Positions 1 through 32,225 are shown, counted from the first letter of the stretch. The stretch is DNA of 64,000 bases from Candidatus Omnitrophota bacterium (GCA_026387335.1 JAPLLX010000004.1:13955-77954); one strand, 5' to 3'. A program made the numbers and translations. Notes: generated from the sequence alone by a model not told the origin.

Positions 1-1111
1 GGTGATCCATCTCAGTATCTTGGTAAGCGGTAGCCAGATGGACCTCAGTAACAGGATGCTCATTAAGATCCTGCTCACCTTTGCTATTTAAAAGCTCTTC
101 GTCAATACGAGTGCCTTCGGGAACCGGATTACCGGCAAAAACTATAAAATATGGCTCAGGTAGAGTAGATGCGCCATGCTGGACTACTCCGGCAAGGCCA
201 TATTCTTCCCTAGCTACCTTACCTAACTCGCCTAAAGTATTAAAACCTACCTTGGCCTTGGCTAGCTTACCCTGAGCATCCCTTACGCCGCCATGCTTAG
301 TCCCGGTCTGCACAGCAATCTTGGTTATGGATTCAAGGTCAAGTCCTTCTTCTCGGCTGAGTCTTCGTAATTCAGGGTTATAACCATCCATAAAAGCCCT
401 GAGGTCTTCCACGGTGCTATTTTTCTGTTTGGCTTTATCCAAACCCATACCGATTTCGCCAATCTCACCACCTAAATTTACCACAATGCCTAATTTATCT
501 AAACCTAACCTTCTTTCTTCTTTACGTATATATCTAGTCAACTCTGCTGTTAGCTTATAGTTAAGCTCCTGTTGTTCCTTATGAGTCAACTTATTCCAGT
601 CTACTAACTGAGACAGATCCACGTCTATCTGGTAAAAACCCGCCTCTAGTGCTTCAGTAATGAGTTCCTTTTCATCCTGGATTGCCTTTTCAGGATTCTT
701 TAAATAATCCTTAAGGGCTATCTGGAAGTGATCCCCCTGTAAATACAAGGTCTGGTTATAGCCTTCTTTAATAGCTGCAGCCAGCATTGAAGTAGTAAAT
801 TCAATAGGACGTTGGCCAGTATATTTTATTTCTGATTTGGCAATTTCCAATATAACCTTAGTTACGTTATTCTTAACAGCAGACTTCAATGCTGCCCTGG
901 CAGTATCATAGGCCATACCTCTGATGTTTATAGCCGGAACAGTGTAATGTGTCGGATCTTTTGCCTTTTGTACATATAAATTATGGACAGAACCAAGATT
1001 AATCCCTAGAGAGGCGGCGATACCCTTAATCAGTTGTCGGGATTTATTAACTATCTCTTGATTCGGGTTAAAGGTGGCATCATAGACTAATTGATCAATT
1101 AATACACTTCG
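1..1111 (-). other. Class II fructose-bisphosphate aldolase-like domain of the giant ORF, partial; an estimated ~115 aa of the domain lie beyond the window
   Basis: About 45% identity over ~370 aa to the stand-alone FBA encoded at 30799..32124, for example PAINIRGMAYDTARAALKSAVKNN against PAINLRSMSYDLARAIFRVAAKNN, plus LQGDHFQ, GGEIGEIG, TVEDLRAFMDGY, QTGTKHGG and VQHGASTLPE. Confidence 0.7.
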
Positions 1112-4100
1112 TAAGGCAGGTTCATTTAATATATTATAGCCGTCAGTAGTAACTTCCACTATTCCTGTTAAGGCGGCATCAAGAGCCTTTACGTCAGCGA
1201 AGTTAAGTCGAGGTTGAGCTAAGTCTGGCAATAGAAACTCCCTACCCGAATTTGAAGTAAGAAATAGTACTGCCTCGGGGCTTGCTCTCTTTATACGATT
1301 CTGCGAAGCAATAGGATCCTTGGTCTGGAACTCTGTGCGAATTACAAAAACACTGCCATCAGGAGTAATTGTAAGTGTATTCGTAGTCACCGTTCCTGCG
1401 GCATTATTAAAAGTTACGCGTTGCATTAAATCTGAGAACGTCGGGCCAAAAAACTTCTCCGAAGCTCCGGTTACTGCTGTTATAGCAAAAGTTCCGCTTC
1501 CTTGGAAATCTGCTGAATTGTAAGTTCTTCGCTGGGCATCAGCACTATAGCCCAACGCATCAAACATTCGTAAGTCTTCTTCTGTAAAACTATCGGCGGT
1601 TTGCGGGCTCACATCTTTTGCAGTCATTTTCTCGGAAACAAACCTATGACTAAACTGCCCATTAGGAACTAATGCTGCCACAAGCTCTGCAATAGTAGCC
1701 TCAGCAGAACCGCTCCTGCCGAACACCATCATCTTATATCCATCGAGGTCTAACCCCAATGAAGCCACTGCCCGCGGAGCAAAATCACCGTCGTCAGGGG
1801 TAAGTAACTTAATCCCGGGATATTTTTCTTGCAGTTGCTTGGCATCTTCAATAATTCTTAAATGCCGGCTGTCGCCTGACTGCGTAGGTTGTTTGGCAAG
1901 ATCCTTATCGCGAGAACCTAAAGTTAAAATTACAAGATGATTCATAAAATCTGCGTAGAAGCCTGTAAAGGCAGGGTCTGTTACTTCAATCCCTTTCTGC
2001 CTGGCTAAGGCAACTGCGATTCTGCGTGTGGCAATACTCGGAAGATCAAGAGGTTGAACTCCGGCATCTCTCGGGGCATTAAAACTTACCCCTGCAATAC
2101 GGAATTTATCCCAAACCGTTCTTCTAATTCCGCCTGGCAGATCTTTGAATAAAGCAGCTAACGACCAACTGTTAGTTGCCTGCGTAGCTGCCTCTTTAAC
2201 AATAAGGCCGTTGGTATGCTCAAGCGCGTCACCGGCAAAATAATTAATATTTACGCCTATTTTGCGCAATTCATTGACTTCGGCCTCAAGGCTTTTGAAA
2301 AAGTTTTCCGGGTCAGGGTCCCAATAGCCTTTCGCGTAACCCTTCCAGTAAATACGGCCTCTTTTTAGAGAAACTGCGTCATCTCTTTCTCCCTCATCCG
2401 CAATAACAATTATAGCTTCAAGGGGGTTGGCTTCAATAAAAGAGACTAAGCTTCTTCTGCTAAACTCAACTGCATTGGCATCAGCAATATTCTTTCCCTG
2501 TTTAGTGCCCACGCCTGCATAAAGAATCGAGCCCATAGCTTGGCCGATAGAAGTCTCAATTACTGCTCTTGTAGTAGGTTGCTTTAGGACTTCTTTAGTC
2601 GGGAAATTACCTTGTAACCTTACCACTTTTATTGTACTCTTTTTAAGGCCAAAATCTGTAAGCACCTTCCCAAAAGACGCGGGGATATCTTGATTTTCTA
2701 ATTCTGTGCCTGTTTGTAAAGCTAAGTTGGCGAGTGATTCCTGCGCGGCAGCGGCTTTTCCTTCTGCGGTCATATACGGCAGATAAGACTTAAGGTACTC
2801 AACGAATTGCTGCTTAAAAGCGCTCATATCTGAAGGTTCAACATCGCCTTTCACCACTGTTGCATCCTCCCCGGTAGAAATATTACTGACTACAACACCA
2901 TCAACCGGTAAAACAAATTTATTCTTTAATTCTGGATCAGCCAATAACTTACTCGCAATCTGGACTTGAAGTTGGTCAGGCATAGAATCACCTACTTTCT
3001 TACCCTGAGCTGCCAGAAAAGCAAGCGCCATTCTACCGCCGATTATAAAGAGATCTGTTTCTTTCTTTAAGGAATCAAATAGATCAATCTTAGTGTCAAG
3101 TTTTGCTCCGGCCAAAATAACTACTAAAGGCTTCACAGGATTATTACGGAGTTGTTTTAAGTAAGTATATTCATTTGCTAAACTTAATCCTGCGAATTTC
3201 GTTCCGAGAGCAAAAAATCTGGTGATTGCCTGAACAGAAGCATGAGCACGATGGTCAACCGAAAAGGAATCGTTAACATAATATTTCGCTATTCGGCTTA
3301 ACGCTTGAGCAAAAGCCTCGTTATTTAGTTCTTCGGCTAACCTAAAGCGGAGATTCTCTAAGAAAACAACTTCTCCGTTTTTCTGAGTATTCTGGATAAA
3401 ATCTTCTACCGGCTTACCAATACAATCATCTAATTTATACACCGGTACTCCCAGAAGTCTCTGGAGCTCTTTTGCTACAGGATCAGTCCTGAGCTTCTCA
3501 TCAACCTTTCCATTTGGCCTACCTAAATGAGTAGCTACAATAAGTTTGACTTTCTTGGCTAATAATGCTTGCGCGGTAGGAAGGATTGCCCTGAGCCTAG
3601 AATTATCGGTTATATTTAAATTTGAATCTAAAGGAACATTACCGTCTATGCGTAGAAAGACGGTATCTCCTTCTTTTACATTCTGTAAGAGACTATCAAA
3701 CTGGGAAAGCTCACCTGTAACAGGATCAATTAAAACTTTGACTCCCGGCAGGTTTTCCACTCCAAATTTGAATGCCTCTAAGAATGCTCCGCCGGCCATT
3801 GAGACATAGTCAAATTGATCCCTCTCTTTTTCAGATAATGTCGCTATAGTATCGCCTCCACCTACGATTTTCTTTATTGTTTTAGGCAAACTTAAAACGT
3901 TCTTGGCCGTACCTTTTGTGCCGTAGCTTGTAGATTCTACTTCCGCTACTCCCATAGGCCCATTCCAGAGCACCGTGCCCTTATCTCCAGCAGCTGAAAA
4001 AACCTCCTGCATTCTTTTCATATCAAGCTCCACGCTTGCCGGGCCAATATCCGCAATAACCTTGCCTTTAATGTGGGAAAAGGCATTTTCATAAACTATG

Positions 4101-7100
4101 AGGTTCACCATACGATTGGAGAAACCAGTTTCATTATCATACCAAGTCTCTAACCTGATGATTGTCTGATCAAGCTCATCATCGTAATCAACAATTTCAA
4201 TAGAATTACCATCCACAATAGTAGAAGCAGGATTACCAACAATAGTGGCGGATGTAATCGGATCCTGAGTATAAGCCAAAAGGCCCGCAAATTTATTTTG
4301 GCTGGCTTTTCTAAACGCATTTTGGATCTGTTCTTTAGTCACCTTACCCTTACGTACGACTAACAAGTCAACAACCGAACCTGTAGGGTTAGGAGTACGT
4401 ATTGCCCAACCATCAGATTTTCCGGTTAAGGAAGGGAATATTTTAGCTGCGGTTTTAGCAGCTCCGGTTGAAGCAGGCTCGGCATTACCTAATGCACTCC
4501 TACCACGCACAGGCTCTTTTTTATGCAGGTCTTGCTTGGCAAAATTCTGATCCGTAGTATAACCATGCACAGTAAGCATATCCTGAGAAACAATTCTACC
4601 TTCTATAGGAAGGCCTTCCTGTTCCAATGCGGAAATTTCATTTTCAAACGGTTCATCTAAAACAGCACCTACGGGCATTAAAGCATTAGTAGTGCAGCTG
4701 GCATTATCTTTAGTGAGGGCAGCCCGGGTTGGTTCAACTACACCCAAGACAATAGATTGTCCTACTCCTTCTGCCGGCGCAGTAATAATTACTTTCCCAC
4801 CTTTAATATGCGTAAGGTGAGCCATAGCGTCATCAGCATTCTTTAAATCTCCGGAACTTTCTGCGATAATTTTTATGCCTGCTACATCCCAGGGGAGCTC
4901 TGAAACTGCTTTTCTTTCGTTAACAATCAGGACTTTCTTCCCATTTATATCTAAAACACCTACCAGACTTTTTAATAACCAGTTAATTGAACTTTGCAGC
5001 TCAGCTCGAGGCTTTCCCCATGAAACTAAGAGTTTTTCAAGATAAGGAACAAGCTCTTCTTTCTCCTGAAGCATATACAATCTCTGGGAATCGATCTGAC
5101 CGTTGATAATCCCTTTTACCTGATCTTCTGTATAATTATTTAAAAGTTGAGAGATTTCCTTCTTTAATTGCTTAGGGGTTAAAATAATCCTAGTCACCGG
5201 TTTAGGCGTGGACTGCTGGATTGAATCTGCGGCTAAAAGCCAGGATATGATTAACATGTTGCTTGGGCCATTAATCATCCTGAGGTCAACATTCGGGTCT
5301 CCCTGCATAGCCCAGGCTATGGTCCTGCCTGTTCTACCCGGCCCATTTTCTCCCACAATTGCTGACTGCATCGGCTTACCTTTATATGTAAAGCGGGGCC
5401 GGCTTTTTCCGTCAAGAGACGGAATATAGCTGGAATTAGTATCCAAAAACTTAGGCCTTATAATTTGAGATTGCGCATCTTGAGCCGCGGAAAGAACGCT
5501 TTCAATTTCTTCGGAAATGGTTTGAGAATCTTTAGAGGTAACAATAGACGCAATCTTCCCTTCTTTCATACCATCCAACATTAAAGGAAGCTGGCTTAAG
5601 GCGAAAGTCGTATCCTCGTTATGTAAAACCTGTAGATGAACCATATTTTTTCCCGTAACTTTAGTCTGTTTACCCAAAACAACAATCGGCGCCTGTTTAT
5701 AGGTATCTAAAGAAACTTTCGAGTTATCCTCGGAATAAACAAGCTTACCCCTAAGAGCGCCTTCTGCGGCATCTTTAAAGATTTTGTTTATTGAAGCAAC
5801 ATCCGTATTAGAATTTAAAACCATCTTGACATCTAATATGCAACCGAGCATCTGCGGAGCAAAATGAACCCTTCCCTTGATTCGTCCGGATAAATCAGGA
5901 GAAAACATTTTACCCACATATTCATCTATATCCCTGCTTAAGGCAGGAGCAATATTATTTCCCGAAGAACGCATAAGAACCGGGTCTGGCCCGGAATTAT
6001 CCAAGCCACGCTGTAACGATGAAGGTGGCTGAACATCTGTAAAACTAACACCCCTGATTGTTTCCTGCGGGATAAGAGACAAAACCGGCCTTAAAGCGCT
6101 GACTGCAGTTAAAGCAGGATTCGTAACAATGACAAATTGAGCGCCCTGGCTTTTATGGCTAGCAGCTAACTGAGGGTTTTGGCCTTCAATTACAGCTTGC
6201 GCATTTAATTCCTTCCAAGGAAACTCTTTGGGGTTAGAAATTGCAGAAACCTTTAAAACGAGTTTCCCGTTTCTTCCCAAGCCTTCGGGTAAAACTTGAA
6301 AATTCTTATTAAACCAGTTTCTGAACGCGGGAGTTGCAGAAAAATCTTTGGTTAAAAGATAATAAAGGTTATCGGCAGAAACGCCGTTTACTCCCACTAA
6401 TTCAACGTCTTTACTCTTACCTAAGAGCCATTCACGGATAAGTTCCCGTTCCTGCGCACCGGGATTATTTATCGCAACTTTTACCGGCGAGCTCATGCTT
6501 GCTCTTGTTAATTCGTGTGCTGTAGGAGTCCCCGATGCATCCACTAGAATTCCCTTAAGTGTAGGAAGAAGCGTATCCACTACTGTTGTTATATTGAAAG
6601 TTGCTCCCTGCATTCTCGCGTCTACTTCCAGACCTGTAAGGATTTGACCACCGCTAAAATAACTCCGGATTACCTGTCCGGTAGGAGTACGTACTGTTTC
6701 CTTAATATTATACTCGCCTTGAGCGAAGGATTTTTTATAAGCGTTAAAATAAGTAGATTTAGACCAGGCGGCGGCGGAAGTAAGGCCGGTAAGGTCTTTT
6801 CTGTCAATACGCGAAGCGTATTTACCTTCCTGACCGGTAAAATGAGACTTAAACCAGCGAGAGAGAATGATGGAATAATAGACCTGCCTTAAGGAAGCGT
6901 AACGTTTGGAAAGATTCACTTCTTTGGTTAATTTAGGGATAATTAATTCGCGGATTAACTGGGAAGAATATTCGTTTAACGCCTTAGCCCGGCTGTCTTT
7001 AAAGCTATAGGTAGCCGAATCCTTAAGAAAATCCTGCTCCAGCATGACCTTTAAGGTCGCCTTATAGATATAGGCGCTGTCGTTGGTCTGACGGACAATG

Positions 7101-7654
7101 ATTTCATTGGGGACTATCCAGGGACGGGTCAAGGTAGGAATGGTTACTTCCTGGTAGCCATAGAGTTCTTCGGCCTTCTTATAAAGCCTGTTCCAGTATT
7201 CCCGGCCTTCGGGAGTTTCGGGTGAAGTAAATTGGGCGGTATCTTTCTTTAGCTGCAGGTCTGTCTCAAGCATGATTTTGCCTACGTCAGTCCTGGCTAA
7301 GTAGTCATCTATAATGTTATCTTCGGAATCCGGGCGCAGGTTTACCCAAAACTTGTCGCTGGGAAGATTTATACCTACTAGAAAATAATTTAATAATTCC
7401 TGGGTAGCGGCGTCAAGCTGTTTTCCCTTAAGCTCCTTGATATCGCCTTTATCCAACATTACCTTAATATTATCATTCTGGCTGTCAAAGGAGAAAAAAC
7501 GGATATGTACAGGCCTAAACCTATCCTGGACAAAGCCACCGGACATCTTAGATAAATGGCCGGCCAGATTAAGTTCGGTTGCGATACTGGCGAAACCTAT
7601 CTGCTGGAAGACCAAACACAGGGAAATTAGCAGGGAAGAAATTTTACGCCACAT
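1..7654 (-). CDS. Giant secreted multi-domain protein, at least 2551 aa in the window, with its C-terminus running off the window at position 1. Order of parts: signal peptide, ~390 aa unassigned, degenerate GAPDH-like, intact GAPDH-like, circularly permuted PGK-like, GlpX-type FBPase-like, class II FBA-like (partial)
   Basis: Hand translation of the reverse strand from ATG at 7654..7652 (AGGAGG 8 nt upstream) continues without a stop to position 2. The ORF track shows no competing long ORF in 1..7650. Motifs read directly: MWRKISSLLISLCLVFQQIGFASIA; NASCTTNALMP...TVHGYTTDQ...WYDNETGFSNRMVNL (GAPDH); RIDGNVP...THLGRPNG...LENLRFR...NDSFSVDHRAHAS...GGRMALAFL and WNGPMGV...GGGDTIA...MAGGAFLE (PGK); GKNIADANAVE...IADEGERDD...DPDPEN...TPDDGDFA (GlpX); PAINIRGMAYD...LQGDHFQ...QTGTKHGG...VQHGASTLPE (class II aldolase). 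Confidence 0.8.
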   Translation of the reverse strand, partial: MWRKISSLLISLCLVFQQIGFASIATELNLAGHLSKMSGGFVQDRFRPVHIRFFSFDSQNDNIKVMLDKGDIKELKGKQLDAATQELLNYFLVGINLPSDKFWVNLRPDSEDNIIDDYLARTDVGKIMLETDLQLKKDTAQFTSPETPEGREYWNRLYKKAEELYGYQEVTIPTLTRPWIVPNEIIVRQTNDSAYIYKATLKVMLEQDFLKDSATYSFKDSRAKALNEYSSQLIRELIIPKLTKEVNLSKRYASLRQVYYSIILSRWFKSHFTGQEGKYASRIDRKDLTGLTSAAAWSKSTYFNAYKKSFAQGEYNIKETVRTPTGQVIRSYFSGGQILTGLEVDARMQGATFNITTVVDTLLPTLKGILVDASGTPTAHELTRASMSSPVKVAINNPGAQERELIREWLLGKSKDVELVGVNGVSADNLYYLLTKDFSATPAFRNWFNKNFQVLPEGLGRNGKLVLKVSAISNPKEFPWKELNAQAVIEGQNPQLAASHKSQGAQFVIVTNPALTAVSALRPVLSLIPQETIRGVSFTDVQPPSSLQRGLDNSGPDPVLMRSSGNNIAPALSRDIDEYVGKMFSPDLSGRIKGRVHFAPQMLGCILDVKMVLNSNTDVASINKIFKDAAEGALRGKLVYSEDNSKVSLDTYKQAPIVVLGKQTKVTGKNMVHLQVLHNEDTTFALSQLPLMLDGMKEGKIASIVTSKDSQTISEEIESVLSAAQDAQSQIIRPKFLDTNSSYIPSLDGKSRPRFTYKGKPMQSAIVGENGPGRTGRTIAWAMQGDPNVDLRMINGPSNMLIISWLLAADSIQQSTPKPVTRIILTPKQLKKEISQLLNNYTEDQVKGIINGQIDSQRLYMLQEKEELVPYLEKLLVSWGKPRAELQSSINWLLKSLVGVLDINGKKVLIVNERKAVSELPWDVAGIKIIAESSGDLKNADDAMAHLTHIKGGKVIITAPAEGVGQSIVLGVVEPTRAALTKDNASCTTNALMPVGAVLDEPFENEISALEQEGLPIEGRIVSQDMLTVHGYTTDQNFAKQDLHKKEPVRGRSALGNAEPASTGAAKTAAKIFPSLTGKSDGWAIRTPNPTGSVVDLLVVRKGKVTKEQIQNAFRKASQNKFAGLLAYTQDPITSATIVGNPASTIVDGNSIEIVDYDDELDQTIIRLETWYDNETGFSNRMVNLIVYENAFSHIKGKVIADIGPASVELDMKRMQEVFSAAGDKGTVLWNGPMGVAEVESTSYGTKGTAKNVLSLPKTIKKIVGGGDTIATLSEKERDQFDYVSMAGGAFLEAFKFGVENLPGVKVLIDPVTGELSQFDSLLQNVKEGDTVFLRIDGNVPLDSNLNITDNSRLRAILPTAQALLAKKVKLIVATHLGRPNGKVDEKLRTDPVAKELQRLLGVPVYKLDDCIGKPVEDFIQNTQKNGEVVFLENLRFRLAEELNNEAFAQALSRIAKYYVNDSFSVDHRAHASVQAITRFFALGTKFAGLSLANEYTYLKQLRNNPVKPLVVILAGAKLDTKIDLFDSLKKETDLFIIGGRMALAFLAAQGKKVGDSMPDQLQVQIASKLLADPELKNKFVLPVDGVVVSNISTGEDATVVKGDVEPSDMSAFKQQFVEYLKSYLPYMTAEGKAAAAQESLANLALQTGTELENQDIPASFGKVLTDFGLKKSTIKVVRLQGNFPTKEVLKQPTTRAVIETSIGQAMGSILYAGVGTKQGKNIADANAVEFSRRSLVSFIEANPLEAIIVIADEGERDDAVSLKRGRIYWKGYAKGYWDPDPENFFKSLEAEVNELRKIGVNINYFAGDALEHTNGLIVKEAATQATNSWSLAALFKDLPGGIRRTVWDKFRIAGVSFNAPRDAGVQPLDLPSIATRRIAVALARQKGIEVTDPAFTGFYADFMNHLVILTLGSRDKDLAKQPTQSGDSRHLRIIEDAKQLQEKYPGIKLLTPDDGDFAPRAVASLGLDLDGYKMMVFGRSGSAEATIAELVAALVPNGQFSHRFVSEKMTAKDVSPQTADSFTEEDLRMFDALGYSADAQRRTYNSADFQGSGTFAITAVTGASEKFFGPTFSDLMQRVTFNNAAGTVTTNTLTITPDGSVFVIRTEFQTKDPIASQNRIKRASPEAVLFLTSNSGREFLLPDLAQPRLNFADVKALDAALTGIVEVTTDGYNILNEPALRSVLIDQLVYDATFNPNQEIVNKSRQLIKGIAASLGINLGSVHNLYVQKAKDPTHYTVPAINIRGMAYDTARAALKSAVKNNVTKVILEIAKSEIKYTGQRPIEFTTSMLAAAIKEGYNQTLYLQGDHFQIALKDYLKNPEKAIQDEKELITEALEAGFYQIDVDLSQLVDWNKLTHKEQQELNYKLTAELTRYIRKEERRLGLDKLGIVVNLGGEIGEIGMGLDKAKQKNSTVEDLRAFMDGYNPELRRLSREEGLDLESITKIAVQTGTKHGGVRDAQGKLAKAKVGFNTLGELGKVAREEYGLAGVVQHGASTLPEPYFIVFAGNPVPEGTRIDEELLNSKGEQDLNEHPVTEVHLATAYQDTEMDH
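1333..2572 (-). other. GlpX-type (class II) fructose-1,6-bisphosphatase-like domain with ~45- and ~20-aa insertions
   Basis: GKNIADANAVEFSRRSL aligns to GDKNTADGAAVNAMRIML; IIVIADEGERDDAVSL to TIVIGEGEIDEAPML; YWDPDPEN to AVDPIEGT; SFNAP to FLNAP; KLLTPDDGDFAPRAVAS to VFAIPDGDVAASIL; MMVFGRSGSAEATIAELVAALVPNG to VLYGIGGAPEGVVSAAVIRALDG; GTFAITAVTGAS to VIFSATGITKG. The metal-ligand Asp and Glu positions are retained. Confidence 0.5.
2845..4066 (-). other. Phosphoglycerate kinase-like domain, circularly permuted (C-terminal third first, then the N-domain up to the permutation point)
   Basis: The first segment IADIGPASVE...LWNGPMGVAEVE...IVGGGDTIATL...MAGGAFLEAFKFGVENLPGV matches the PGK C-terminal region. 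It is followed directly by RIDGNVP...ITDNSRLRAILPT...ATHLGRPNG...VVFLENLRFRLAEE...NDSFSVDHRAHAS...ILAGAKLDTKIDL...IIGGRMALAFL...LPVDGVVV, which is the PGK N-domain and the start of the C-domain. Confidence 0.65.
4090..5365 (-). other. Intact GAPDH-like domain of the giant ORF, with a ~90-aa insertion in the NAD-binding part
   Basis: AIVGENGPGRTGR...INGKKVLIVNER...LPWDVAGIKIIAESSG...KGGKVIITAPAEG...NASCTTNALMPVGAVLDE...TVHGYTTDQ...ASTGAAKTAAKIFPSLTGK...TPNPTGSVVDLLV...WYDNETGFSNRMVNL. The catalytic Cys and His are present. Confidence 0.7.
5460..6490 (-). other. Degenerate, probably non-catalytic GAPDH-like domain of the giant ORF
   Basis: VKVAINNPGAQER replaces the Rossmann INGFGRIGR. NGKLVLKVSAISNPKEFPWKELNAQAVIEGQ...AASHKSQGAQFVIVTNPA aligns to the GAPDH NAD domain. 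TNPALTAVSALRPV sits where SCTTNCLAP would be, so there is no Cys. SFTDVQPP replaces TVHAxTATQ, so there is no His. GRIKGRVHFAPQMLGCILDVKM aligns to GKLTGMAFRVPTxNVSVVDL. This stretch was re-translated carefully (6300..5821). Confidence 0.55.
7577..7654 (-). other. Sec-type signal peptide (or N-in signal anchor) of the giant ORF
   Basis: M-W-R-K n-region, 18-residue hydrophobic core ISSLLISLCLVFQQIGFA, then SIA. Confidence 0.6.
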
Positions 7655-7728
7655 TTTTACATCCTCCTTTTTTCTGGTTCCTCATTATTAAATACTTTTT
7701 AAAATTCCTTTTAATTCCACAAAAAAGA

Positions 7729-7757
7729 AAGCCGAACTGACCCTTTCAGTTCGGCTT
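7729..7757. terminator. Perfect 12-bp stem hairpin (AAGCCGAACTGA / CCCTT / TCAGTTCGGCTT) with T-rich tracts on both sides; looks like a bidirectional intrinsic terminator, in the divergent region between the giant ORF and the ppiD-like gene
   Basis: Read directly. Flanked by aaaaaag on the 5' side and aattattttatt on the 3' side. Confidence 0.45.
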
Positions 7758-7952
7758 AATTATTTTATTACGTGGCAGATCCCCGGTCGTCCTCCGATAA
7801 CCGGAAATTTATTAAACCTTAACAAATTTGATAAAGGATAACATATCAACCTGGCCTTGTCAAGTTTTTTTTAAGTTTTTTCAAGCAAACCTACACTTTA
7901 TAGTTGCAAAATCAAAAGTTTAGACTATAATGGATAAAACGTTAACAATAAC

Positions 7953-8012
7953 TCCGCGCATAGCGCGGAGTAAACAAGCGTTAAGCGCCGGAGGCAACGC
8001 TTGTTTAAGGAG
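7953..8012 (+). promoter_or_regulatory. Two strong hairpins in the leader of the ppiD-like gene (CTCCGCGC-ATA-GCGCGGAG, and AAACAAGCGTT-13 nt-AACGCTTGTTT), followed by an AAGGAG RBS
   Basis: Perfect 8-bp and 11-bp stems read directly. The second stem ends 1 nt before the RBS. Confidence 0.4.
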
Positions 8013-8018
8013 AAACTG

Positions 8019-9401
8019 ATGCTTAAAATATTGCGCCATAAAAAGACAGCCAAAAAAGTCTGGATATTCCTGGCTTTAATCATAATACCCGCCTTTGCGC
8101 TTTGGGGTTTTGGCGGGGCATTCCGTTCTCGTGAAGAAAATATGCCCGCGGGCAAAATTTTTGGACGGGCCATATCCAAGCTTGAACTTAAGGATTCGCT
8201 GAGCGCCGCCACAACCATAGCCATTCTACAATACGGAGATAAACTCCCCGAGATACAGAAATACCTTAACCTTGAAGGTCAAGCCTGGCAGAGGCTCATT
8301 CTGCTGGAAGAAGCCAAGAGGCGCGCAATTAAAGCTAGCGACGCAGAAGTCATCCAGGCCATTGAAGCCCTTCCCTACTTTCAGTATAAAGGAGGCTTTG
8401 ACAATAAAACTTACCAACAAAACCTGCAGTATATTTTTCGCCTTAATCCGCGCCAATTTGAGGAACAGATGCGCCAAGGCATTATACTCAGTAAGCTCTA
8501 TAAGCAAGTTACCGACAACACAAAAATTGACGAAAATGCGATCGGGAAAGAGTACGAGAAGCTAAACCAGGAAATAAGCATCTACTATATCTCCAGTCTT
8601 TCTGCTGATTTTATCAAGGATATTAAGCCCAGCGCCGGCGAGCTCAATGATTATTTTAGCAAAAATAAGGATATGTTCAGAGAACCGGCTTCCTTTAATA
8701 TAGAATACCTGGTAATAAATTCTGTGGTCCAGGTCAAAGAAATCTCAGAATTATTAAACAAAAAATTCACGTTTGCAAAAATTGCCCAAGAATTAAAATT
8801 ACAACCCAAGGAAACCGGCCTCTTTATTCAGAACAGCCCTGCGCCGGGGCTGGAATGGCTGGCAGAAAACCCGGAGATAATCTCTAAACTTAAAACGGTA
8901 GAATGCAGCCCGCCGGTACAGGTAGGTGATTTGTATTACCTGTTAAAATTAAAGGAAACCAAAGAAGCGCATACTCCGGAATTTAAGGCGGTAGAACAAA
9001 AGGTCAGGCTTGCCCTGATTAATACCGGGGCCCTAAAAAAAGCTGAACAAAAAATAAACCAGTGCGCAAAAGAGCTAAAATCCCGGAAATTTAAACAAGC
9101 GGCCAAAAAATGCGGATTAAAAGTCAAGGAAACCGCCCCCTTTAAATTCGCCAGCAATATTGAAGGTATCGGCGCCGCGGATATATTTTGGAATACCGCA
9201 AAATCCTTAAAAGACACAGAGAATAGCGAAATTATCCGCTTACCTTCCGGTTTCTATATAATTAAGGTAAAGGCCATCTCTAAAATAGACCCTAAAAAAT
9301 TTGAACAGGAGAAAGCAGGGTTTGGGAACAGCTTACTTGAACAGAAAAAACAGGAGAAATTCAGGGAATTCTTGACAGGGTTGAATAAAAAAGCGCAATA
9401 G
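8019..9401 (+). CDS. Periplasmic chaperone PpiD/SurA-like protein with an N-terminal membrane anchor
   Basis: The ORF-track start (TTG 8001) is probably an extension; ATG 8019 sits 6 nt after AAGGAG. N-terminal TM segment WIFLALIIIPAFALWGF, then a SurA_N-like region. No clear parvulin motif was recognised. Confidence 0.5.
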   Translation: MLKILRHKKTAKKVWIFLALIIIPAFALWGFGGAFRSREENMPAGKIFGRAISKLELKDSLSAATTIAILQYGDKLPEIQKYLNLEGQAWQRLILLEEAKRRAIKASDAEVIQAIEALPYFQYKGGFDNKTYQQNLQYIFRLNPRQFEEQMRQGIILSKLYKQVTDNTKIDENAIGKEYEKLNQEISIYYISSLSADFIKDIKPSAGELNDYFSKNKDMFREPASFNIEYLVINSVVQVKEISELLNKKFTFAKIAQELKLQPKETGLFIQNSPAPGLEWLAENPEIISKLKTVECSPPVQVGDLYYLLKLKETKEAHTPEFKAVEQKVRLALINTGALKKAEQKINQCAKELKSRKFKQAAKKCGLKVKETAPFKFASNIEGIGAADIFWNTAKSLKDTENSEIIRLPSGFYIIKVKAISKIDPKKFEQEKAGFGNSLLEQKKQEKFREFLTGLNKKAQ

Positions 9402-9437
9402 GCTAGGAAACCTATTGCGCTTTTAAGATACTAGAGC

Positions 9438-9620
9438 TTAACCTACTTTAATGCAATTTACCGGGCAAGAATCAGCTACTTCCTGCAGGTTACAAGTCGC
9501 GCAAACCTGAGTTTTTACGTGAGCGATCCCGTCTCCCTGCACCTGAAAAACCTCCGGGCAGGATTGCTCGCATAAACCGCAACCTACGCAAGTAGAAGCA
9601 TCAATAGTAACTTTTGACAT
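9438..9620 (-). CDS. fdx: Small 4Fe-4S ferredoxin (60 aa)
   Basis: CVGCGLCEQSCP ... CATCNLQEVADSCP; matches the short archaeal/Thermotoga-type ferredoxins. Confidence 0.8.
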   Translation of the reverse strand: MSKVTIDASTCVGCGLCEQSCPEVFQVQGDGIAHVKTQVCATCNLQEVADSCPVNCIKVG

Positions 9621-9646
9621 TTATCCTCTCCTTACCCACAAGGGTA

Positions 9647-9676
9647 CACCGACGCAATTCCGATTAGCGTCGGGTG
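9647..9676. repeat. Hairpin CACCGACGC-AATTCCGATTA-GCGTCGGGTG; member of a two-copy palindromic family (second copy 40256..40285)
   Basis: Same stem (CCGACGC/GCGTCGG) and a similar 11-nt loop (AATnCCnnTTA) at both loci. Confidence 0.4.
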
Positions 9677-9678
9677 CT

Positions 9679-10158
9679 TTATCTTTCTAACAAATTCTCA
9701 AACATCTCTTCGTGATCGACTTCTTCCGACAATATATGCGTGACTAGCTGATAAGTAACATGATCCTTACCGAGAGTCTTTTTGGCGATCTTACTATAAA
9801 CCTCAATTGCCCCTGCTTCTGCCTCAGTAACAATACGGATGATCCTGTTGATATCCGCGGTATTCTTGGGAGGCATAAGGTACGGCGCGTTGGCGTTCTT
9901 CTCTAAATCCATAGGATTAGCCGTAGGAGCATCGCCTAACTTTATGATCAGATCCGCTACTTCTGTGGCATGCTCTAATTCATCCTTAGCTAATTTTTCC
10001 AGCATTTCTTTCACATCTTCATAAGCCTTGCCGGAAACAATCTGGGCCATATACCAATATAAATAATAAGCGAGCCATTCGTCGCAATACGCCTTATTTA
10101 AATCCTTGACCAGGTCTTTTAAGCTTACCTCTACAATTGCCCTTCCCTGTTTTCCCAT
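9679..10158 (-). CDS. Ferritin-like diiron protein (rubrerythrin/bacterioferritin superfamily, no rubredoxin domain)
   Basis: Diiron EXXH-type motifs DELEHATE and SEEVDHEE; 159 aa. Confidence 0.55.
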   Translation of the reverse strand: MGKQGRAIVEVSLKDLVKDLNKAYCDEWLAYYLYWYMAQIVSGKAYEDVKEMLEKLAKDELEHATEVADLIIKLGDAPTANPMDLEKNANAPYLMPPKNTADINRIIRIVTEAEAGAIEVYSKIAKKTLGKDHVTYQLVTHILSEEVDHEEMFENLLER

Positions 10159-10193
10159 TTCTTACCTCCTTGATTTTCCAGCTTAAGCTCGTT

Positions 10194-11078
10194 TTAAGCC
10201 TGCTGGGCTTCAACTTTCAATCCGTACTTTTTTATGTTATTATCCGCGATCTCCTGAATCTTCTTTAGTTCTTCAGGTTTATTCAATAAATGCTTAAACC
10301 TTCCCTGAAGCTTCAGGTATTCTTCCACCGGCTTAGGCGTAATCTGCCTGCGGTTGCTTAGTAAACCAAACTCATACTCAATCAAAGGATACAGCCCTGT
10401 CTCAACAGCCAACTTGGCTACCACAAGAGTAAGATTTGTTTCATGCCTCCAGCCTAACGGGCAAGGCACATGCACCTGTATATATTTAGGGCCTTTAATG
10501 GAAAGGGCCTTTTTTACTTTCCTCTGTAAATCCTGGGCAAATCCGCTAGAGGCCGTAGCTACATAAGGAATACCGTGGGCATTGGTAATCTCCGGCATCG
10601 GCTTTTTCGGACGAAGGTTCCCCAAGGAAGACGCGCCCGCGGGGCTGGTCGTTGTATTGGTATCAAAAGGAGTAAGCCCGCTTCTTTGCACCCCGGTATT
10701 CATATACGCTTCGTTATCATAACAGACATACAAAATATTGTGCCCGCGCTCAAGCATCCCGGAAAGGGCCTGCAGGCCTATATCCGCGCTGCTTCCGTCT
10801 CCGCCTTGCGCGATAATATTTATACTGTCAGCCTTACCTAAATATTTAATCGCTGATTCAACTCCTGAAGCGACTGCCGCGGCATTCTCAAATAACGAAT
10901 GGATAAAAGGAACTCTCCAGCTTGACTCAGGATATTTGGTCGAGAAGACCTCCAGGCACCCGGTATTATTTACGATAATAGTGTTTGGACCGGCCGCATC
11001 CAATACAAGCCGCGCTGCCATAGACTGGCCGCAACCTGCGCAGGCTGTATGCCCCGGGGCGAACAAAGTCTCAGTCAT
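10194..11078 (-). CDS. porB: Pyruvate:ferredoxin oxidoreductase beta subunit (TPP-binding)
   Basis: CAGCGQSM and GDGSSADIG TPP-fold motifs; in a porG-porD-porA-porB operon. Confidence 0.85.
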   Translation of the reverse strand: MTETLFAPGHTACAGCGQSMAARLVLDAAGPNTIIVNNTGCLEVFSTKYPESSWRVPFIHSLFENAAAVASGVESAIKYLGKADSINIIAQGGDGSSADIGLQALSGMLERGHNILYVCYDNEAYMNTGVQRSGLTPFDTNTTTSPAGASSLGNLRPKKPMPEITNAHGIPYVATASSGFAQDLQRKVKKALSIKGPKYIQVHVPCPLGWRHETNLTLVVAKLAVETGLYPLIEYEFGLLSNRRQITPKPVEEYLKLQGRFKHLLNKPEELKKIQEIADNNIKKYGLKVEAQQA

Positions 11079-11125
11079 CCCGCGACTCCCTTCGATAGCT
11101 GGGGATTTCTAGAGACACAAAATGA

Positions 11126-12307
11126 TTAGTCATAGTTCTCCTTTAAAAGCTCTGGCTTTAAATCTATAAACTCAATCCCCTTCTCCTTGCCGTTCATCAG
11201 CCGGAATATTTCTTTTATAGAATCCTTAGTGATATCGCGTCCGCCTAAACCTACCACAAAACTGTTTATACTTTGAGGTTTCTTCGTCTTGCCGGAAAAT
11301 ACAGCCTTAACTTCCACGTGAAGAGGAGCAAATGACCCTAAAGAGAGGGCCCGATCAATAACCGCGACTTTAGGGATATTTTTTAAAGCAGTGTATATCT
11401 CATCAACTGGAAAAGGCCTTAAAGATGTAACCTTAAGTAAACCCACTTTTTTACCCTTGACCCTTAATTCATCAATGACCTCTTTTATTGTACCGCAGAC
11501 TGAGCCCATAGCCACAATCACTTTTTCAGCATCCTTAAGCTGATAACCCTCAACTAAGCCATTATAAGTCCTGCCGAACACTTTTGAAAATTCCGCAGTA
11601 AGTTTAGGGATAAGAGCTAAAGCTTCTTTATGTGTTTCATTAAGGGCATAGCGAGCCTCCATATAATATTCAGGGTCAACTAACGGACCCAAGGTCAGAG
11701 GATTCTCTACATCTAATTTATAAGGGGGCTTATAAGGCGGTAAAAATTTATCTACCTGTTCCTGCGTGGGCATATCTACTGTCTCTAACCCGTGAGTAAG
11801 AATAAAACCATCCATACAGACCATCACCGGAAGCATTATGGATTTATCTTCGCCTAATTTGTAAGCGATAAGATGTAGATCCACTACTTCCTGTATATCT
11901 TCGGCATGGAACTGAATCCAGCCTGAATCGCGCAGGGAGACCGCATCCTGATGGTCGTTCCAGATATTTATGGGAGCGGATATCGCCCGGGCAGCAGTAG
12001 TCATAATTACAGGTAAACGCATGCCGGCAATATTATAAAGGACTTCGGCCATATAAAACAACCCTTGAGAACTGGTAGCGGTATAAGCGCGCACCCCTGT
12101 TGCCACTGCGCCTAAAACTACGGAGGCCGCGGAATGTTCGCTTTCTACATTAACAAATTGGGCATTCAGCTGGCCGTCAGCGACTATCTGGGCAAGTCCT
12201 TCCACAATATGAGTCTGAGGAGTAATGGGGTAGGCGGAGATTACTCCGGGCTTACAGCGCTTGATAATCTCAGCTACCGCCATTGAACCTTCTAATAATT
12301 CTTTCAT
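11126..12307 (-). CDS. porA: Pyruvate:ferredoxin oxidoreductase alpha subunit
   Basis: 393 aa; typical PorA N-terminus (MAVAEIIKRCKPGVISAYPITPQTHIVE). Confidence 0.85.
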   Translation of the reverse strand: MKELLEGSMAVAEIIKRCKPGVISAYPITPQTHIVEGLAQIVADGQLNAQFVNVESEHSAASVVLGAVATGVRAYTATSSQGLFYMAEVLYNIAGMRLPVIMTTAARAISAPINIWNDHQDAVSLRDSGWIQFHAEDIQEVVDLHLIAYKLGEDKSIMLPVMVCMDGFILTHGLETVDMPTQEQVDKFLPPYKPPYKLDVENPLTLGPLVDPEYYMEARYALNETHKEALALIPKLTAEFSKVFGRTYNGLVEGYQLKDAEKVIVAMGSVCGTIKEVIDELRVKGKKVGLLKVTSLRPFPVDEIYTALKNIPKVAVIDRALSLGSFAPLHVEVKAVFSGKTKKPQSINSFVVGLGGRDITKDSIKEIFRLMNGKEKGIEFIDLKPELLKENYD

Positions 12308-12308
12308 A

Positions 12309-12572
12309 TTATCCTTGTGAGTCTTCTTTAATCATCTCTATATCCTGCTTAGGGCAGACTGCCGCGCAGTTTCCGCAGCCCTTGCAGTAATCAGGATTAA
12401 AGTCATAAGTATTCTTACCCTGGCCGCTGATACAGGCCTCCGGACAGATGAGGAGACACATATTACAGGCAATACAGTTTTTCTTTAAGAATTTGGGCCT
12501 TAACTCAGTCCTCCACGGACCGGTCTTATTATTCTTACTTGAACCCGGTTTAGAAATCAACGGACCAAACAT
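12309..12572 (-). CDS. porD: Pyruvate:ferredoxin oxidoreductase delta subunit (2x[4Fe-4S] ferredoxin)
   Basis: CIACNMCLLICPE and CKGCGNCAAVCP. Confidence 0.8.
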   Translation of the reverse strand: MFGPLISKPGSSKNNKTGPWRTELRPKFLKKNCIACNMCLLICPEACISGQGKNTYDFNPDYCKGCGNCAAVCPKQDIEMIKEDSQG

Positions 12573-12583
12573 TAACGAACTCC

Positions 12584-13135
12584 CTATTTATTGCCGCGGG
12601 TTACAAAATCAAAACCTTCCTGCGCGGCTTTAATATTAGCTTCCTGAAGCTTGGCGGCGAATCTGTGTTTAATAGCCGCGATTAATTCATCTAAAGTCAA
12701 TTCTTGCGTAGCCGCGCAGAAAGCGCCTAAAAGCGCGGTGTTGCCTAAGGGCCTACCTATATGTTTTAGGGCGATATCGTTTGCCGGAACCAGGAAAACT
12801 TTCTGTTTAGGCTTGACCTTAGGCATCTGCACAGAATCTTCCTTGCCGCTAATAATAGCTATGCCATCCTCTTTAAGCCCGGAAAAACAATTATACCCGC
12901 GCATAAGAGTATGGTCGGCGATAATAACGTAATCCGGCTCGTATATCTGGCTGCGCAAGCGTACCGGCTTAGAGTCAACGCGCACAAACGCGTTCATGGG
13001 AGCTCCCATACGGGCAGCGCCAAAACTGGGGAAGGCGTAAGGGCATAAACCTTTTAAAAAGTAGGCATAACCTAATAACGTGGCAGTAGTAATTGCGCCC
13101 TGGCCTGCGCGGGCGTGGATCCTGATTTCTTTCAT
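12584..13135 (-). CDS. porG: Pyruvate:ferredoxin oxidoreductase gamma subunit
   Basis: IRIHARAGQGAITTATLL N-terminus, characteristic of PorG. Confidence 0.8.
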   Translation of the reverse strand: MKEIRIHARAGQGAITTATLLGYAYFLKGLCPYAFPSFGAARMGAPMNAFVRVDSKPVRLRSQIYEPDYVIIADHTLMRGYNCFSGLKEDGIAIISGKEDSVQMPKVKPKQKVFLVPANDIALKHIGRPLGNTALLGAFCAATQELTLDELIAAIKHRFAAKLQEANIKAAQEGFDFVTRGNK

Positions 13136-13198
13136 TTTCTCCTTAGCCGTTACAAAGTTTGTTAATTATATATTCTTTGCGCTGGTTTGTCAAATCTT

Positions 13199-13828
13199 TT
13201 ATTCAACAGTGTTATTTGCCTCAACTTTTTCTCCTTTAGGGCCTAATCTGGCCTGCCTGGCCTTAAGGAAATCCTTGGCTTCAGTAGCATCTATTACCCC
13301 ATCGCCATTTTTATCAAATTTAGCCTCTTCCGGGGTGTCCACGATTGAACGGGCCTGTATTTTTTCCTGTTCGTCGACTACACCATCCTTGTTCGTATCC
13401 AGCCGGGCTTTCCTTCTTTCTCTGAATTGATTGGCTTCTGTTTCGTCAACTACGCCATCATTATTCGTATCCATCCTTGCTTCTTTAGGAGTGTTTACTC
13501 TGGCTTTTTCTTCCTGATTAGCTTGCGTAGCCTCCACTTTATCCACCCTACCATCATTATTCGTATCCATCCTCGCTTCTTTAGGAGTGTTTACCTGTGC
13601 GCGGGCTTGATTAGCTTCTACTCTGCCCACTCTACCGTCATTATTCGTATCCATCCTCGCTTCTTTCGGGGTATTTACCACTGAACGCTGTTTAACCTCC
13701 CCGCCCTTGTTTCTATCGGCGGGTTGAGCTTTTTGCTGCATTGCCGGTTTAGCCGGTTTAGCCGGCTGAGCATAGGCAATAGAAACAAAAAATGCCATGA
13801 CCAAAACCAACCCTAAGCTTTTAAACAT
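13199..13828 (-). CDS. Secreted protein with five EF-hand-like calcium-binding loops in tandem repeats
   Basis: Signal peptide MFKSLGLVLVMAFFVSIAYA. Loops DTNNDGRVGRVE, DTNNDGRVDKVE, DTNNDGVVDETE, DTNKDGVVDEQE and DKNGDGVIDATE each fit the DxNxDGxIxxxE pattern. Repeated unit VNTPKEARMDTNNDG. Confidence 0.6.
   Translation of the reverse strand: MFKSLGLVLVMAFFVSIAYAQPAKPAKPAMQQKAQPADRNKGGEVKQRSVVNTPKEARMDTNNDGRVGRVEANQARAQVNTPKEARMDTNNDGRVDKVEATQANQEEKARVNTPKEARMDTNNDGVVDETEANQFRERRKARLDTNKDGVVDEQEKIQARSIVDTPEEAKFDKNGDGVIDATEAKDFLKARQARLGPKGEKVEANNTVE
13440..13690. repeat. About three ~87-bp near-identical tandem DNA repeats inside the EF-hand gene (core attattcgtatccatcctcgcttctttaggagtgtttac)
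   Basis: Near-identical 40-mers at ~13470, ~13552 and ~13636, read directly. Confidence 0.7.
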
Positions 13829-13859
13829 ATCTCCTCCTTTATTAATAATCCCGCTAAAA

Positions 13860-14894
13860 TTAAAAATTATCCTTTATATAAAGCGAGGTAGCGCGTAAAA
13901 GATGGTATATCTCTTCAGATTCGCTTATCTTTAGCGTACCTAAGCCGCAGGAAGGGCTGATAAACATCTGACTCCTAAGTAAAGAACCTTCCAGCCCCTT
14001 ATTAACTAACGCCTCAATACAGCTCTTAATCTTATTAACCAAAGAAACAGGACTGTCTTCTATTCTACCACTTTGGGTAGGCACAATACCCCAACAGATG
14101 ATTCCCCCTCTTTTTAAGAACCCTTTCAGGTTTTGGGCGTAGAGGACGAATCTCTCCTGGAAATTATATGCGTCAAAGTTAATAATGTCAATAGCCGGGA
14201 TATCCGTAAATAAAGACCAATCGGTATTGCCGCAGCAATGTAGCCCCAAAAACAGGTCTTTACTCTTTACGCTTTCAGAGAACTCGGCTAGACCCTGGAC
14301 TACATCTTCCCTGTTGAGCGAAGTATAGGCTGAGCCAAAAGTACCCAGGTATGGCTCGTCGATAAAAGCAATGATGGGCCTGGCGAATTTCTTAAATAAA
14401 TCTATCTGCCAGCGTAACTTCATACTCAAGGCTTTGAAGATAGCCTGTTTAAATACCGGATCATGCAAAAGCATGACTCCCTTTTCGTCGTTTATGCCGG
14501 CCAGAAAAGTAAAGGGACCGGTAACCTGAATCTTGATAAAATCTATTCTCCCTAAATCCACGTTACTAAGCCGCTCATAAAATTTATGCAGGCCTAAAGC
14601 AAAACTAGCGCTTAGCTTAAAATAATCCAGATCATCGTTAATAATTTTCTCATAAAATACCTCCAGCTTCTTCTCTTTATTTTCAGGGTTAAAGACTAAA
14701 CCATTGCCTTTAATTTCAAGGCAGGGGATGTTTTCGCTAAATTGGGCCAGCATCCCTTCGCGAAAATCCCTCTTGGGAAACTGCGGCCAAAAAGGGATGT
14801 TGGGCACAAATTTAAAGATTAAATCCAAAGCCTTATCCGCGTCCAGATGCGGAAGACTTCCTACTCCCGTAGCTAAACCTCTTATTCCGCTCAT
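13860..14894 (-). CDS. Uroporphyrinogen-decarboxylase-fold protein (MetE C-terminal / MtaA-CmuA-like methyltransferase family)
   Basis: 344 aa; HCCG motif (GLHCCGNTDW), consistent with the Zn-binding H-x-C-G of URO-D-like methyltransferases. Assignment is tentative. Confidence 0.35.
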   Translation of the reverse strand: MSGIRGLATGVGSLPHLDADKALDLIFKFVPNIPFWPQFPKRDFREGMLAQFSENIPCLEIKGNGLVFNPENKEKKLEVFYEKIINDDLDYFKLSASFALGLHKFYERLSNVDLGRIDFIKIQVTGPFTFLAGINDEKGVMLLHDPVFKQAIFKALSMKLRWQIDLFKKFARPIIAFIDEPYLGTFGSAYTSLNREDVVQGLAEFSESVKSKDLFLGLHCCGNTDWSLFTDIPAIDIINFDAYNFQERFVLYAQNLKGFLKRGGIICWGIVPTQSGRIEDSPVSLVNKIKSCIEALVNKGLEGSLLRSQMFISPSCGLGTLKISESEEIYHLLRATSLYIKDNF

Positions 14895-15352: not shown

Positions 15353-15363
15353 CTTTCTTTACT

Positions 15364-17286: not shown

Positions 17287-17287
17287 A

Positions 17288-32223: not shown

Positions 32224-32225
32224 TA

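Follow-up and report, generated by a model that had tools for sequence, protein, structure and literature searches.

A predicted Sec signal peptide heads a large family of modular enzyme arrays in Omnitrophota

A gene on the minus strand of a 64,000-nucleotide stretch of DNA from a Candidatus Omnitrophota bacterium (GCA_026387335.1, JAPLLX010000004.1:13955-77954; the whole of this stretch is called the window here) encodes a giant protein, P0001, whose N-terminus, MWRKISSLLISLCLVFQQIGFASIAT (translated from 7654..7577), reads as a Sec signal peptide in front of a chain of enzymes of cytoplasmic type. The full product has 3,600 amino acids and is named [quoted passage not shown] by NCBI (MAG, metagenome-assembled genome). 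Its signal peptide gives a first glimpse of a highly constrained system that spans the phylum and either exports or tethers central metabolism. Our preferred reading, to which we assign a probability of about 0.55, is that a genuine Sec signal peptide heads an export leader for catalytically active enzyme arrays.

The start codon, ATG at 7654 to 7652, is secure because a strong Shine-Dalgarno sequence stands at a spacing of 7 nt, three consecutive in-frame stops (TAA TAA TGA) lie 10 codons 5′ of the ATG with no start codon in between, and homologues start at the same position. From this ATG the frame stays open for 2,551 codons within the window and then runs past the window start. The classical sequence criteria of Sec/signal peptidase I (SPase I) substrates, namely, a basic n-region, an h-region of 7 to 15 residues, and small residues at positions −3 and −1, are all found (Table 1), and the early mature region, SIATELNLAGH, is neutral or acidic, with 12 positions devoid of basic residues.

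Among 200 homologues the same anatomy recurs. Their h-region varies in sequence (mean hydropathy, 2.89) but measures exactly 12 residues in 195, and the n-region carries a net charge of +2 to +4 in 180. Position −1 is Ala in 92% of the homologues, while position −3 is Gly in 83% and Ser in 15%. The consensus of the c-region is (Q/E)-Q-x-G-F-A↓Q-(V/I)-A, where the arrow marks the predicted cleavage site, and again a neutral or acidic early mature region follows. As judged from the homologous sequences, this pattern lies far beyond chance, and we regard the N-terminal 22 to 25 residues as a genuine Sec-type signal peptide that is predicted to be cleavable. In the AlphaFold2 model, residues 2 to 23 form a lone helix, and a low-confidence linker (residues 17 to 42) leads to a confident globular domain. 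The first-pass annotation of this DNA had offered a Sec signal or an N-in signal anchor. All features of the former are present; the latter fares less well, and a cleaved peptide is likelier because an h-region of only 12 residues is too short for a stable anchor. Other transmembrane segments, a point raised by the same annotation, were looked for in all 3,600 residues of P0001, and none is convincing: the sole other Kyte-Doolittle window at or above 1.6 (residues 955 to 973; 1.61) lies inside a GAPDH cassette.

Two other kinds of signal were considered and rejected. A twin-arginine translocation (Tat) signal does not fit, as P0001 has RK, RR is present in only 23/200 homologues (the commonest pair being RK), the hydrophobicity of the h-region is high, and basic residues are missing from the c-region. 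A lipoprotein signal (lipobox [LVI][ASTVI][GAS]C) does not fit either, with Cys13 preceded by Leu and this Cys absent from many homologues. A secreted EF-hand protein encoded in the same window has a similar N-terminal peptide, which ends in AYA↓Q.

The signal peptide belongs to a much larger conserved unit. A whole-protein search with P0001 returned 534 proteins at E ≤ 1e-10, the best 120 of which were examined. Nearly all of these 120 share only ~13% of P0001, at 60 to 70% identity, and carry very different domains; by source name, all but one are from Omnitrophota. Residues 1 to 345, when used as the query in HMMER, matched 7,417 cluster representatives (5,495 at E ≤ 1e-30), and in 150 of the 150 matches listed from these clusters the leader match is the protein N-terminus. 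Judged by these searches, the leader, i.e., the signal peptide with the N-module behind it, is the hallmark of a very large family of modular proteins specific to Omnitrophota, whose common plan is leader, variable enzyme cassettes, and, in most members, a conserved C-module. The cargo of the family ranges in length from 77 to more than 6,000 residues and covers dozens of unrelated enzyme classes. Some members are named simply “triose-phosphate isomerase,” “phosphoglycerate kinase,” or “GAPDH” by NCBI and JGI.

The N-module, of ~310 residues, ends with IRSYFSGG near residue 336 to 345 and is present in 112 of the best 120 matches. Its AlphaFold2 model is a confident alpha/beta domain (predicted local distance difference test score [pLDDT], 81.8; predicted template modeling score [pTM], 0.77), for which no relative was found in Pfam, among PDB sequences and PDB folds, or in BFVD. 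The C-module starts with GGIDFR ~113 to 135 residues from the C-terminus and was found in 92 of the best 120 matches and in 159 of the 211 proteins examined. It has no Pfam relative, and a search with the C-module itself found only two short fragments. Two natural members are free of cargo: P0165 (537 residues; locus L083, 186-1799) and P0158 (609 residues) consist of signal peptide, N-module, short disordered linker, and C-module. In the AlphaFold2 model of P0165, the C-module begins with a conserved, disordered stretch and continues as a five-helix bundle (pLDDT, ~90), and there is no sign of packing between the N- and C-modules (pTM, 0.55). This model, which holds both modules, has no relative among PDB folds; neither P0165 nor P0158 has an NCBIfam match, and P0165 has no match in PHROGs.

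A scan of one genome per species gave 438 loci with the leader, of which 80 were kept for analysis. These 80 come mostly from Omnitrophota MAGs by title, the rest bearing other labels (mostly “uncultured Planctomycetales”). At least 4 to 5 paralogues occur in single MAGs. The N-modules of paralogues within one MAG are 61 to 71% identical at the protein level but use the same codon at only 18 to 53% of the identical residues. This low codon sharing led us to reject recent gene conversion as the cause of the conservation, which is therefore attributed to long-term purifying selection on the N-module.

The cargo of P0001 runs in the order dead GAPDH, live GAPDH, permuted PGK, a ~520-residue cassette without a family match, class II aldolase, TIM, and an enolase-like domain, with the C-module last. 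GAPDH copy 1 has lost GxGxxG (INNPGAQER in the alignment), its SCTTN Cys segment is deleted, and its catalytic His is replaced by Gln; the fold is predicted to be retained and the enzyme to be dead, so that the dead copy noticed in the first-pass annotation is borne out. Copy 2 keeps GxGxxG, SCTTN, TVH, and STGAAK in the alignment and reaches 252 bits against TIGR01534, which is below the curated cutoff of 367.2. The PGK cassette scores 325 bits against PF00162 (gathering cutoff, 27), but in permuted domain order: its C-terminal third stands directly after GAPDH, ahead of the N-terminal two-thirds, as is also the case in P0002 to P0004. The high-scoring segment pairs given by BLASTP with the canonical-order PGK of P0013 come in swapped order. 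For the ~520-residue cassette, which has no Pfam match and no PDB sequence match either alone or as a profile, a by-eye reading as a GlpX-type fructose-bisphosphatase (FBPase) was dropped, being unsupported by the Pfam, PDB sequence, and profile searches.

The aldolase cassette is GatZ_KbaZ-like at 26.9 to 31.3 bits, just over the cutoff of 26.7, and obtains 36.5 bits against TIGR00167, under the cutoff of that model. When aligned to a stand-alone paralogue encoded in the window (39% identical over the full length), it keeps DH, HGG, and QHGAS. The remaining two enzyme domains lie outside the window. By motif reading, NWK, GHSE, and YEPVWAIGTG are present in the TIM domain (beyond residue 2640), and the enolase-like domain that follows keeps metal and base motifs, by eye. 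Several cassettes of P0001 are diverged, with scores under curated family cutoffs, and the catalytic signatures that were checked are intact. Altogether, the cargo is predicted to be a covalently linked, catalytically competent array of the triose-phosphate/fructose-bisphosphate pathway. A homologous array of PFK, aldolase, dead GAPDH, GAPDH, and PGK is found in P0002 (2,485 residues), which has no N-module and no C-module; its N-terminus is a hydrophobic signal or anchor, MNAGNFHKSLLARIMSLIIIVNFIITTGPVSLYA, unrelated to the family leader.

The cassettes are exchangeable. At locus L081 of a closely related genome, which encodes P0006, the DNA is 94.7% identical to 17738..6483 of the window, a stretch that takes in the PFOR, rubrerythrin, and PpiD-like genes next to the giant gene along with its first ~391 codons. 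Homology between P0001 and P0006 stops at SSPV (~6483), and protein identity resumes at residue 2630 (ASSAAV), from where it is 97.6% to the end. The ~2,240 interior residues, which in P0001 include bacterial-type GAPDH, PGK, and aldolase, have given way in P0006 to a different PGK, an archaeal-type GAPDH (PDB 2czc, E = 9e-17), and a domain of the FBPase_3 family (PF01950). The break-points of the swap fall exactly on the junction motifs SSPV and ASSAAV. In the best 120 proteins, SS[PA][VILM] was observed 309 times against 40 expected (7.7-fold enriched), and the most enriched tetrapeptides of the variable regions are SSPV, AGSP, SSSP, ASSP, and ASSA. The SSP[VI]/ASSA[V] motifs sit at module boundaries. 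Thus, the cargo is modular and is exchanged at defined junctions. Since non-homologous enzymes for the same steps occupy the same position, selection appears to act on the chemistry of the array and not on binding.

Where would such an array work? Its composition favors the outside. P0001 contains 9 Cys residues in 3,600 (0.25%), one of which is the catalytic Cys of GAPDH, versus 1.07% in the other 50 open reading frames (ORFs) of the window (binomial p = 1e-8), and the pooled content of the leader family is 0.31%. Exclusion of Cys is a recognized trait of exported bacterial proteins, and this apparent four-fold depletion favors export. Leaderless, stand-alone PFK and class II aldolase genes lie side by side at 30799-33203 on the minus strand; the PFK has 7 Cys residues in 325, against the 9 in 3,600 of the giant protein. 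With a leaderless aldolase in the same window, at least the aldolase cassette is a second copy, and this paralogue also favors export. The unrelated hydrophobic N-terminal signal that P0002 has of its own was counted for export as well. So were the GT51 transglycosylase and the M23 peptidase carried as cargo by P0105 and P0114, respectively, as these act only outside the cytoplasm. Between leader and cargo, P0105 has only a marginal hydropathy window (1.65), and P0114 has one intervening window (2.03) that is unlike a membrane helix.

In our preferred reading, the chain would be threaded through SecYEG, and the leader peptide would then be cut after GFA. The array would be active as enzymes outside the cytoplasm of the producer. 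This could be in the periplasm or on the surface; it could also be at or within a host or prey cell, which would supply ATP, NAD(H), and substrates. The N- and C-modules would give all arrays a common handling, be it targeting, anchoring, or assembly. Export and cleavage as such are inferred, as are the place where the array acts and what the two modules do, and activity at or within cells of a host or prey may be the most attractive way to reconcile export with the cofactor needs. Omnitrophota are ultra-small, have host-dependent traits, and are possibly predatory or parasitic (PMC10066038); RNA of an Omnitrophota epibiont has been seen inside prey cells, and predator-to-prey transfer was reported (PMC13153191).

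Two neighboring loci touch on extracytoplasmic proteins. At 15364-16527 (minus strand), a membrane reductant transporter of the DsbD/CcdA type adjoins a thioredoxin-like (AhpC-TSA/Redoxin) protein with a signal-peptide-like N-terminus; the pair lies ~8 kb from the giant gene, and one could speculate that it keeps catalytic thiols reduced outside the cytoplasm. A gene for a membrane-anchored SurA_N/Rotamase_2 (PpiD-like) chaperone (8001-9401, plus strand) is divergent from the giant gene, an arrangement kept at five orthologous loci. A study of giant genes by West-Roberts et al. (bioRxiv 10.1101/2023.11.21.568195) places a Rotamase_2 isomerase in secretion loci near such genes.

Several observations weigh against export. 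The gene neighborhood is of the housekeeping kind (PFOR, branched-chain amino-acid synthesis, phosphotransferase system, ribosomal genes, ATP synthase). The neighbors at the sister locus are transketolase and, downstream, hisG, and no secretion system adjoins there. Clustering of the upstream neighbors in the 80 loci (3-kb flank for most) gave only housekeeping genes and no recurrent partner or secretion gene. ATP, NAD(H), S-adenosylmethionine (SAM), and phosphoribosyl pyrophosphate are, to our knowledge, not known to be available in the bacterial periplasm, and GAPDH, PGK, and many other cargo enzymes need them. Sec exports unfolded chains, a difficulty for cargo that depends on cytoplasmic maturation or partners. 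The cargo of other members includes, as read from Pfam accessions, radical SAM (P0104), DnaJ J-domain, GerE helix-turn-helix, and MutS_V domains. In P0104, residues 617 to 625 keep the radical SAM Cys-x4-Cys-x2-Cys triad within a Cys-poor protein, which is hard to square with passage through Sec. Positive-inside scoring of the first internal membrane segment in 19 members came out nearly even, at 9 versus 8, with 2 ties. Finally, a role in the cytoplasm of the bacterium itself would be required if its genome had no other copies of GAPDH, PGK, TIM, or enolase; a search for stand-alone Omnitrophota GAPDHs returned only canonical GAPDHs, the named ones being from other taxa, and did not return P0001, so it is uninformative for this genome.

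One alternative, though we consider it rather unlikely, is a metabolon in which the N-terminus brings or anchors the chain to the membrane while the array carries out ordinary gluconeogenesis or glycolysis on the cytoplasmic face, with the N- and C-modules serving as scaffold or assembly elements. It would suit a cargo that is overwhelmingly cytoplasm-type and cofactor-dependent, as well as a neighborhood of housekeeping central metabolism in which each paralogue has a stable genomic position: 11 or 12 loci, as read from the N-terminal sequences, adjoin glmS and rsmI, and five adjoin PFOR and the PpiD-like gene. The replacement cassettes serve the same steps, so the pathway itself seems to be needed, and the GAPDH-PGK fusion with its permuted PGK may resemble a channeling device. 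Giants that have transmembrane segments only are read likewise in a second preprint (bioRxiv 10.64898/2026.06.07.730766). The N-terminus argues otherwise, since the distribution of charge, +2 to +4 in the n-region and neutral or acidic after the h-region, predicts an N-in/C-out orientation with the bulk of the chain outside, and the 12-residue h-region with the conserved G-F-A↓Q site is that of a cleavage signal and not of an anchor. Moreover, four-fold Cys depletion would be unexpected for cytoplasmic enzymes, a leaderless aldolase paralogue is already present, and the GT51 and M23 cargo of other members must be extracytoplasmic.

The junctions allow another explanation, which we judge improbable: SSP[VI]/ASSA[V] may be protease sites at which a polyprotein precursor is cut into separate enzymes, exported or not, and a precursor of this kind would be compatible with either location. 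The 7.7-fold enrichment of the motif and its position at module boundaries and swap break-points agree with such cutting, and post-translational cleavage has been proposed for Omnitrophota giants in bioRxiv 10.1101/2023.11.21.568195. On the other side, scans against family libraries revealed no protease domain in P0001, and stretches rich in Ser, Pro, and Ala are ordinary flexible linkers. The motif could equally mark the sites where recombinants stay viable, and the dead-live GAPDH pair and the permuted PGK may be adaptations to staying covalently linked.

The first-pass annotation had preferred an exported, non-catalytic adhesin or binding scaffold made of moonlighting glycolytic folds, a reading that we find very improbable and reject mainly because cassette exchange conserves chemistry: the dead GAPDH copy, the strong divergence of several cassettes below curated family cutoffs, and the use of surface-exposed glycolytic enzymes as adhesins in many bacteria speak for it, but the live GAPDH and the aldolase retain their catalytic and cofactor motifs, as do TIM and the enolase-like domain by motif reading, the orthologous locus has swapped in non-homologous enzymes for the same steps and so conserved no surface shape, and the family cargo spans dozens of unrelated enzyme classes. 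Nor does the dead GAPDH call for binding in place of catalysis as that annotation had it. It may be more simply explained as the non-catalytic partner in an intramolecular GAPDH pair.

The coordinates of the gene and its cassettes are collected in Table 1. The region 5′ of the start codon deserves mention in its own right. It comprises hairpin 1 (~7806-7781), a conserved GGGGAU.CUGCCACG stretch, and a hairpin resembling an intrinsic terminator (7757-7729) that is followed by a U-run. This last hairpin lies ~70 nt before the start codon. The 5′ leader has a fold z of −4.0, shows some compensatory changes, and has no Rfam match; we consider it a candidate attenuator or riboswitch for the array. 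Elsewhere in the window, a 209-residue protein (13199-13828, minus strand) combines a signal-peptide-like N-terminus with repeated NTPKEARMDTNNDGRV units that match EF-hand, Excalibur, and dockerin-type calcium-binding models; the protein is free of cysteine, and the sister locus keeps it too. Two further ORFs on the minus strand, at 13860-14894 (344 residues) and 53437-55353 (638 residues), have no Pfam family at E ≤ 1e-5, and the first of them is conserved at the sister locus.

Table 1. Features of the giant gene and its 5′ region (window coordinates; residues are those of P0001)
Feature	Residues	Position	Strand	Remarks
Promoter-like site (7863-7835) and structured 5′ leader		7719..7863	−	Also 5′ of genes at L001, L002, L004, L005, L007, and L008
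Shine-Dalgarno sequence GGAGG		7663..7667	−	7-nt spacing to ATG; conserved in orthologous loci
Predicted Sec/SPase I signal peptide	1-22	7589..7654	−	Cleavage predicted after Ala22
n-region, MWRK		7643-7654	−	Charge +2 plus amino terminus
h-region, ISSLLISLCLVF		7607-7642	−	12 residues, uncharged
c-region, QQIGFA		7589-7606	−	Polar, six residues; Gly at −3, Ala at −1
Mature N-module	23-336	6647..7588	−	Linker to ~residue 42, then globular alpha/beta domain ending in IRSYFSGG
Junction motif SSPV	388-391	6482..6493	−	DNA homology with sister genome ends there
GAPDH-like cassette, predicted catalytically dead	392 to ~700	5555..6481	−	Weak Pfam Gp_dh_N and Gp_dh_C matches; conserved in P0002-P0004
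Type I GAPDH cassette, predicted live	~765-1190	4085..5362	−	~90-residue insertion in NAD domain; catalytic Cys987 codon at 4694-4696
Circularly permuted PGK	1197-1602	2849..4066	−	Pfam PGK, 6e-97, in two stretches
~520-residue cassette without family match	1661-2180	1115..2674	−	Conserved in P0005 and P0009
Class II fructose-bisphosphate aldolase cassette	2182-2627	1..1111	−	Runs off window start
Junction ASSAAV	near 2633-2638	Outside window	−	From P0001 sequence

If the leader exports, the ATP- and NAD-dependent enzymes carried by thousands of Omnitrophota proteins, a near-complete triose-phosphate pathway among them, would reside outside the cytoplasm. This would call for a rethinking of where ultra-small, host-dependent bacteria run their metabolism and how they exploit their partners, and a class of secreted effectors and a targeting module would be added to those known. 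If it does not export, a phylum-wide system would tether central metabolism to the membrane. Either way, metabolic reconstructions may count leader-bearing fusions as ordinary cytoplasmic enzymes. The family also illustrates how, in nature, cassettes are exchanged at defined junctions on the level of a pathway, and the highly conserved leader (~345 residues) and the cargo-less P0165 and P0158 are simple handles for experiments on export. It is tempting to go further and to suppose that Omnitrophota export whole metabolic stretches as modular, recombining arrays behind one leader that most plausibly act at or within cells of a host or prey, which would amount to a bacterial “secreted metabolism” effector system with a new pair of targeting modules; we regard this as possible rather than probable. 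The cargo of such a system would tentatively comprise lower glycolysis/gluconeogenesis, sugar-phosphate mutases, phosphoenolpyruvate synthases, nucleotide kinases, protein kinases, and a radical SAM enzyme.

The family was compared with known systems in which a conserved end directs variable cargo. Cargo of the type IX secretion system (T9SS) with its C-terminal domain (CTD) and the dockerin-bearing enzymes of cellulosomes start with a Sec signal and end in a conserved sorting domain. They resemble the leader family in the combination of signal peptide, variable catalytic middle, and conserved C-terminal module. The C-module of the family, however, is an all-helical bundle after GGIDFR and not a beta-sandwich CTD or a dockerin, and its ~310-residue N-module has no counterpart in them. 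Polymorphic toxins such as CdiA and Rhs proteins have a conserved N-terminal trafficking region and variable cargo that recombines at conserved junctions, with many paralogues per genome. The conserved N-terminal region, the exchanged enzymatic cargo, and the many paralogues are shared, but the variable part of those toxins is an extreme C-terminal toxin accompanied by an immunity gene, whereas members of the leader family vary internally, keep a conserved C-terminus, and carry central metabolism. In the loci examined, no immunity-like partner or secretion gene adjoins, the gene downstream at the sister locus being hisG.

Two eukaryotic cases show cytosolic enzymes redirected by an N-terminal signal. 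According to PMC6460350, microsporidia have signal peptides on otherwise cytosolic proteins, including secreted hexokinases at the parasite-host interface. As in the leader family, a cytosolic sugar enzyme has gained an N-terminal secretion signal in a host-dependent organism; the microsporidian case differs in being secretion of single enzymes through the eukaryotic endoplasmic reticulum, with no conserved flanking modules and no pathway-length fusions. Stramenopile TPI-GAPDH fusions carry N-terminal mitochondrial targeting signals, as described in PMC3527533. There, too, fused glycolytic enzymes with an N-terminal targeting peptide move part of glycolysis elsewhere, but the destination is an organelle with its own ATP and NAD pools, and no such compartment is known in Omnitrophota.

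The closest relatives in kind are the giant proteins of Omnitrophota themselves. According to West-Roberts et al. (bioRxiv 10.1101/2023.11.21.568195), Archaeovorins have FBPase, PGM/PMM, and aldolase domains in predicted extracellular parts, and a missed membrane helix is suspected there. The preprint bioRxiv 10.64898/2026.06.07.730766 describes a “multi-enzyme metabolic” class among proteins of at least 10,000 residues, whose content DeepTMHMM places outside the cytoplasm. The phylum is the same, and there, too, a predicted signal peptide precedes long chains of sugar and nucleotide enzymes of cytoplasmic type. As portrayed there, however, the giants have at least 10,000 to 30,000 residues and mostly many membrane helices, along with repeats of the HEAT or dockerin type and secretion or pilus genes next to their own. 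Archaeovorins in particular have at least 30,000 residues, anchors, and HEAT and glycosyltransferase (GT) repeats, while P0001 has 3,600 residues, no membrane helix, no HEAT or GT domains, and a housekeeping neighborhood. Membership in Archaeovorins, polymorphic toxin systems, and T9SS or dockerin cargo was therefore rejected, as defining features of each are absent. In term searches of both preprints and in motif and keyword searches of the accessible literature, the leader and the C-module did not turn up, nor did the junction motif or the swap of cassettes. Thus, the phenomenon is already known from the Omnitrophota giants, and it is the family frame and its modularity that appear to be undescribed.

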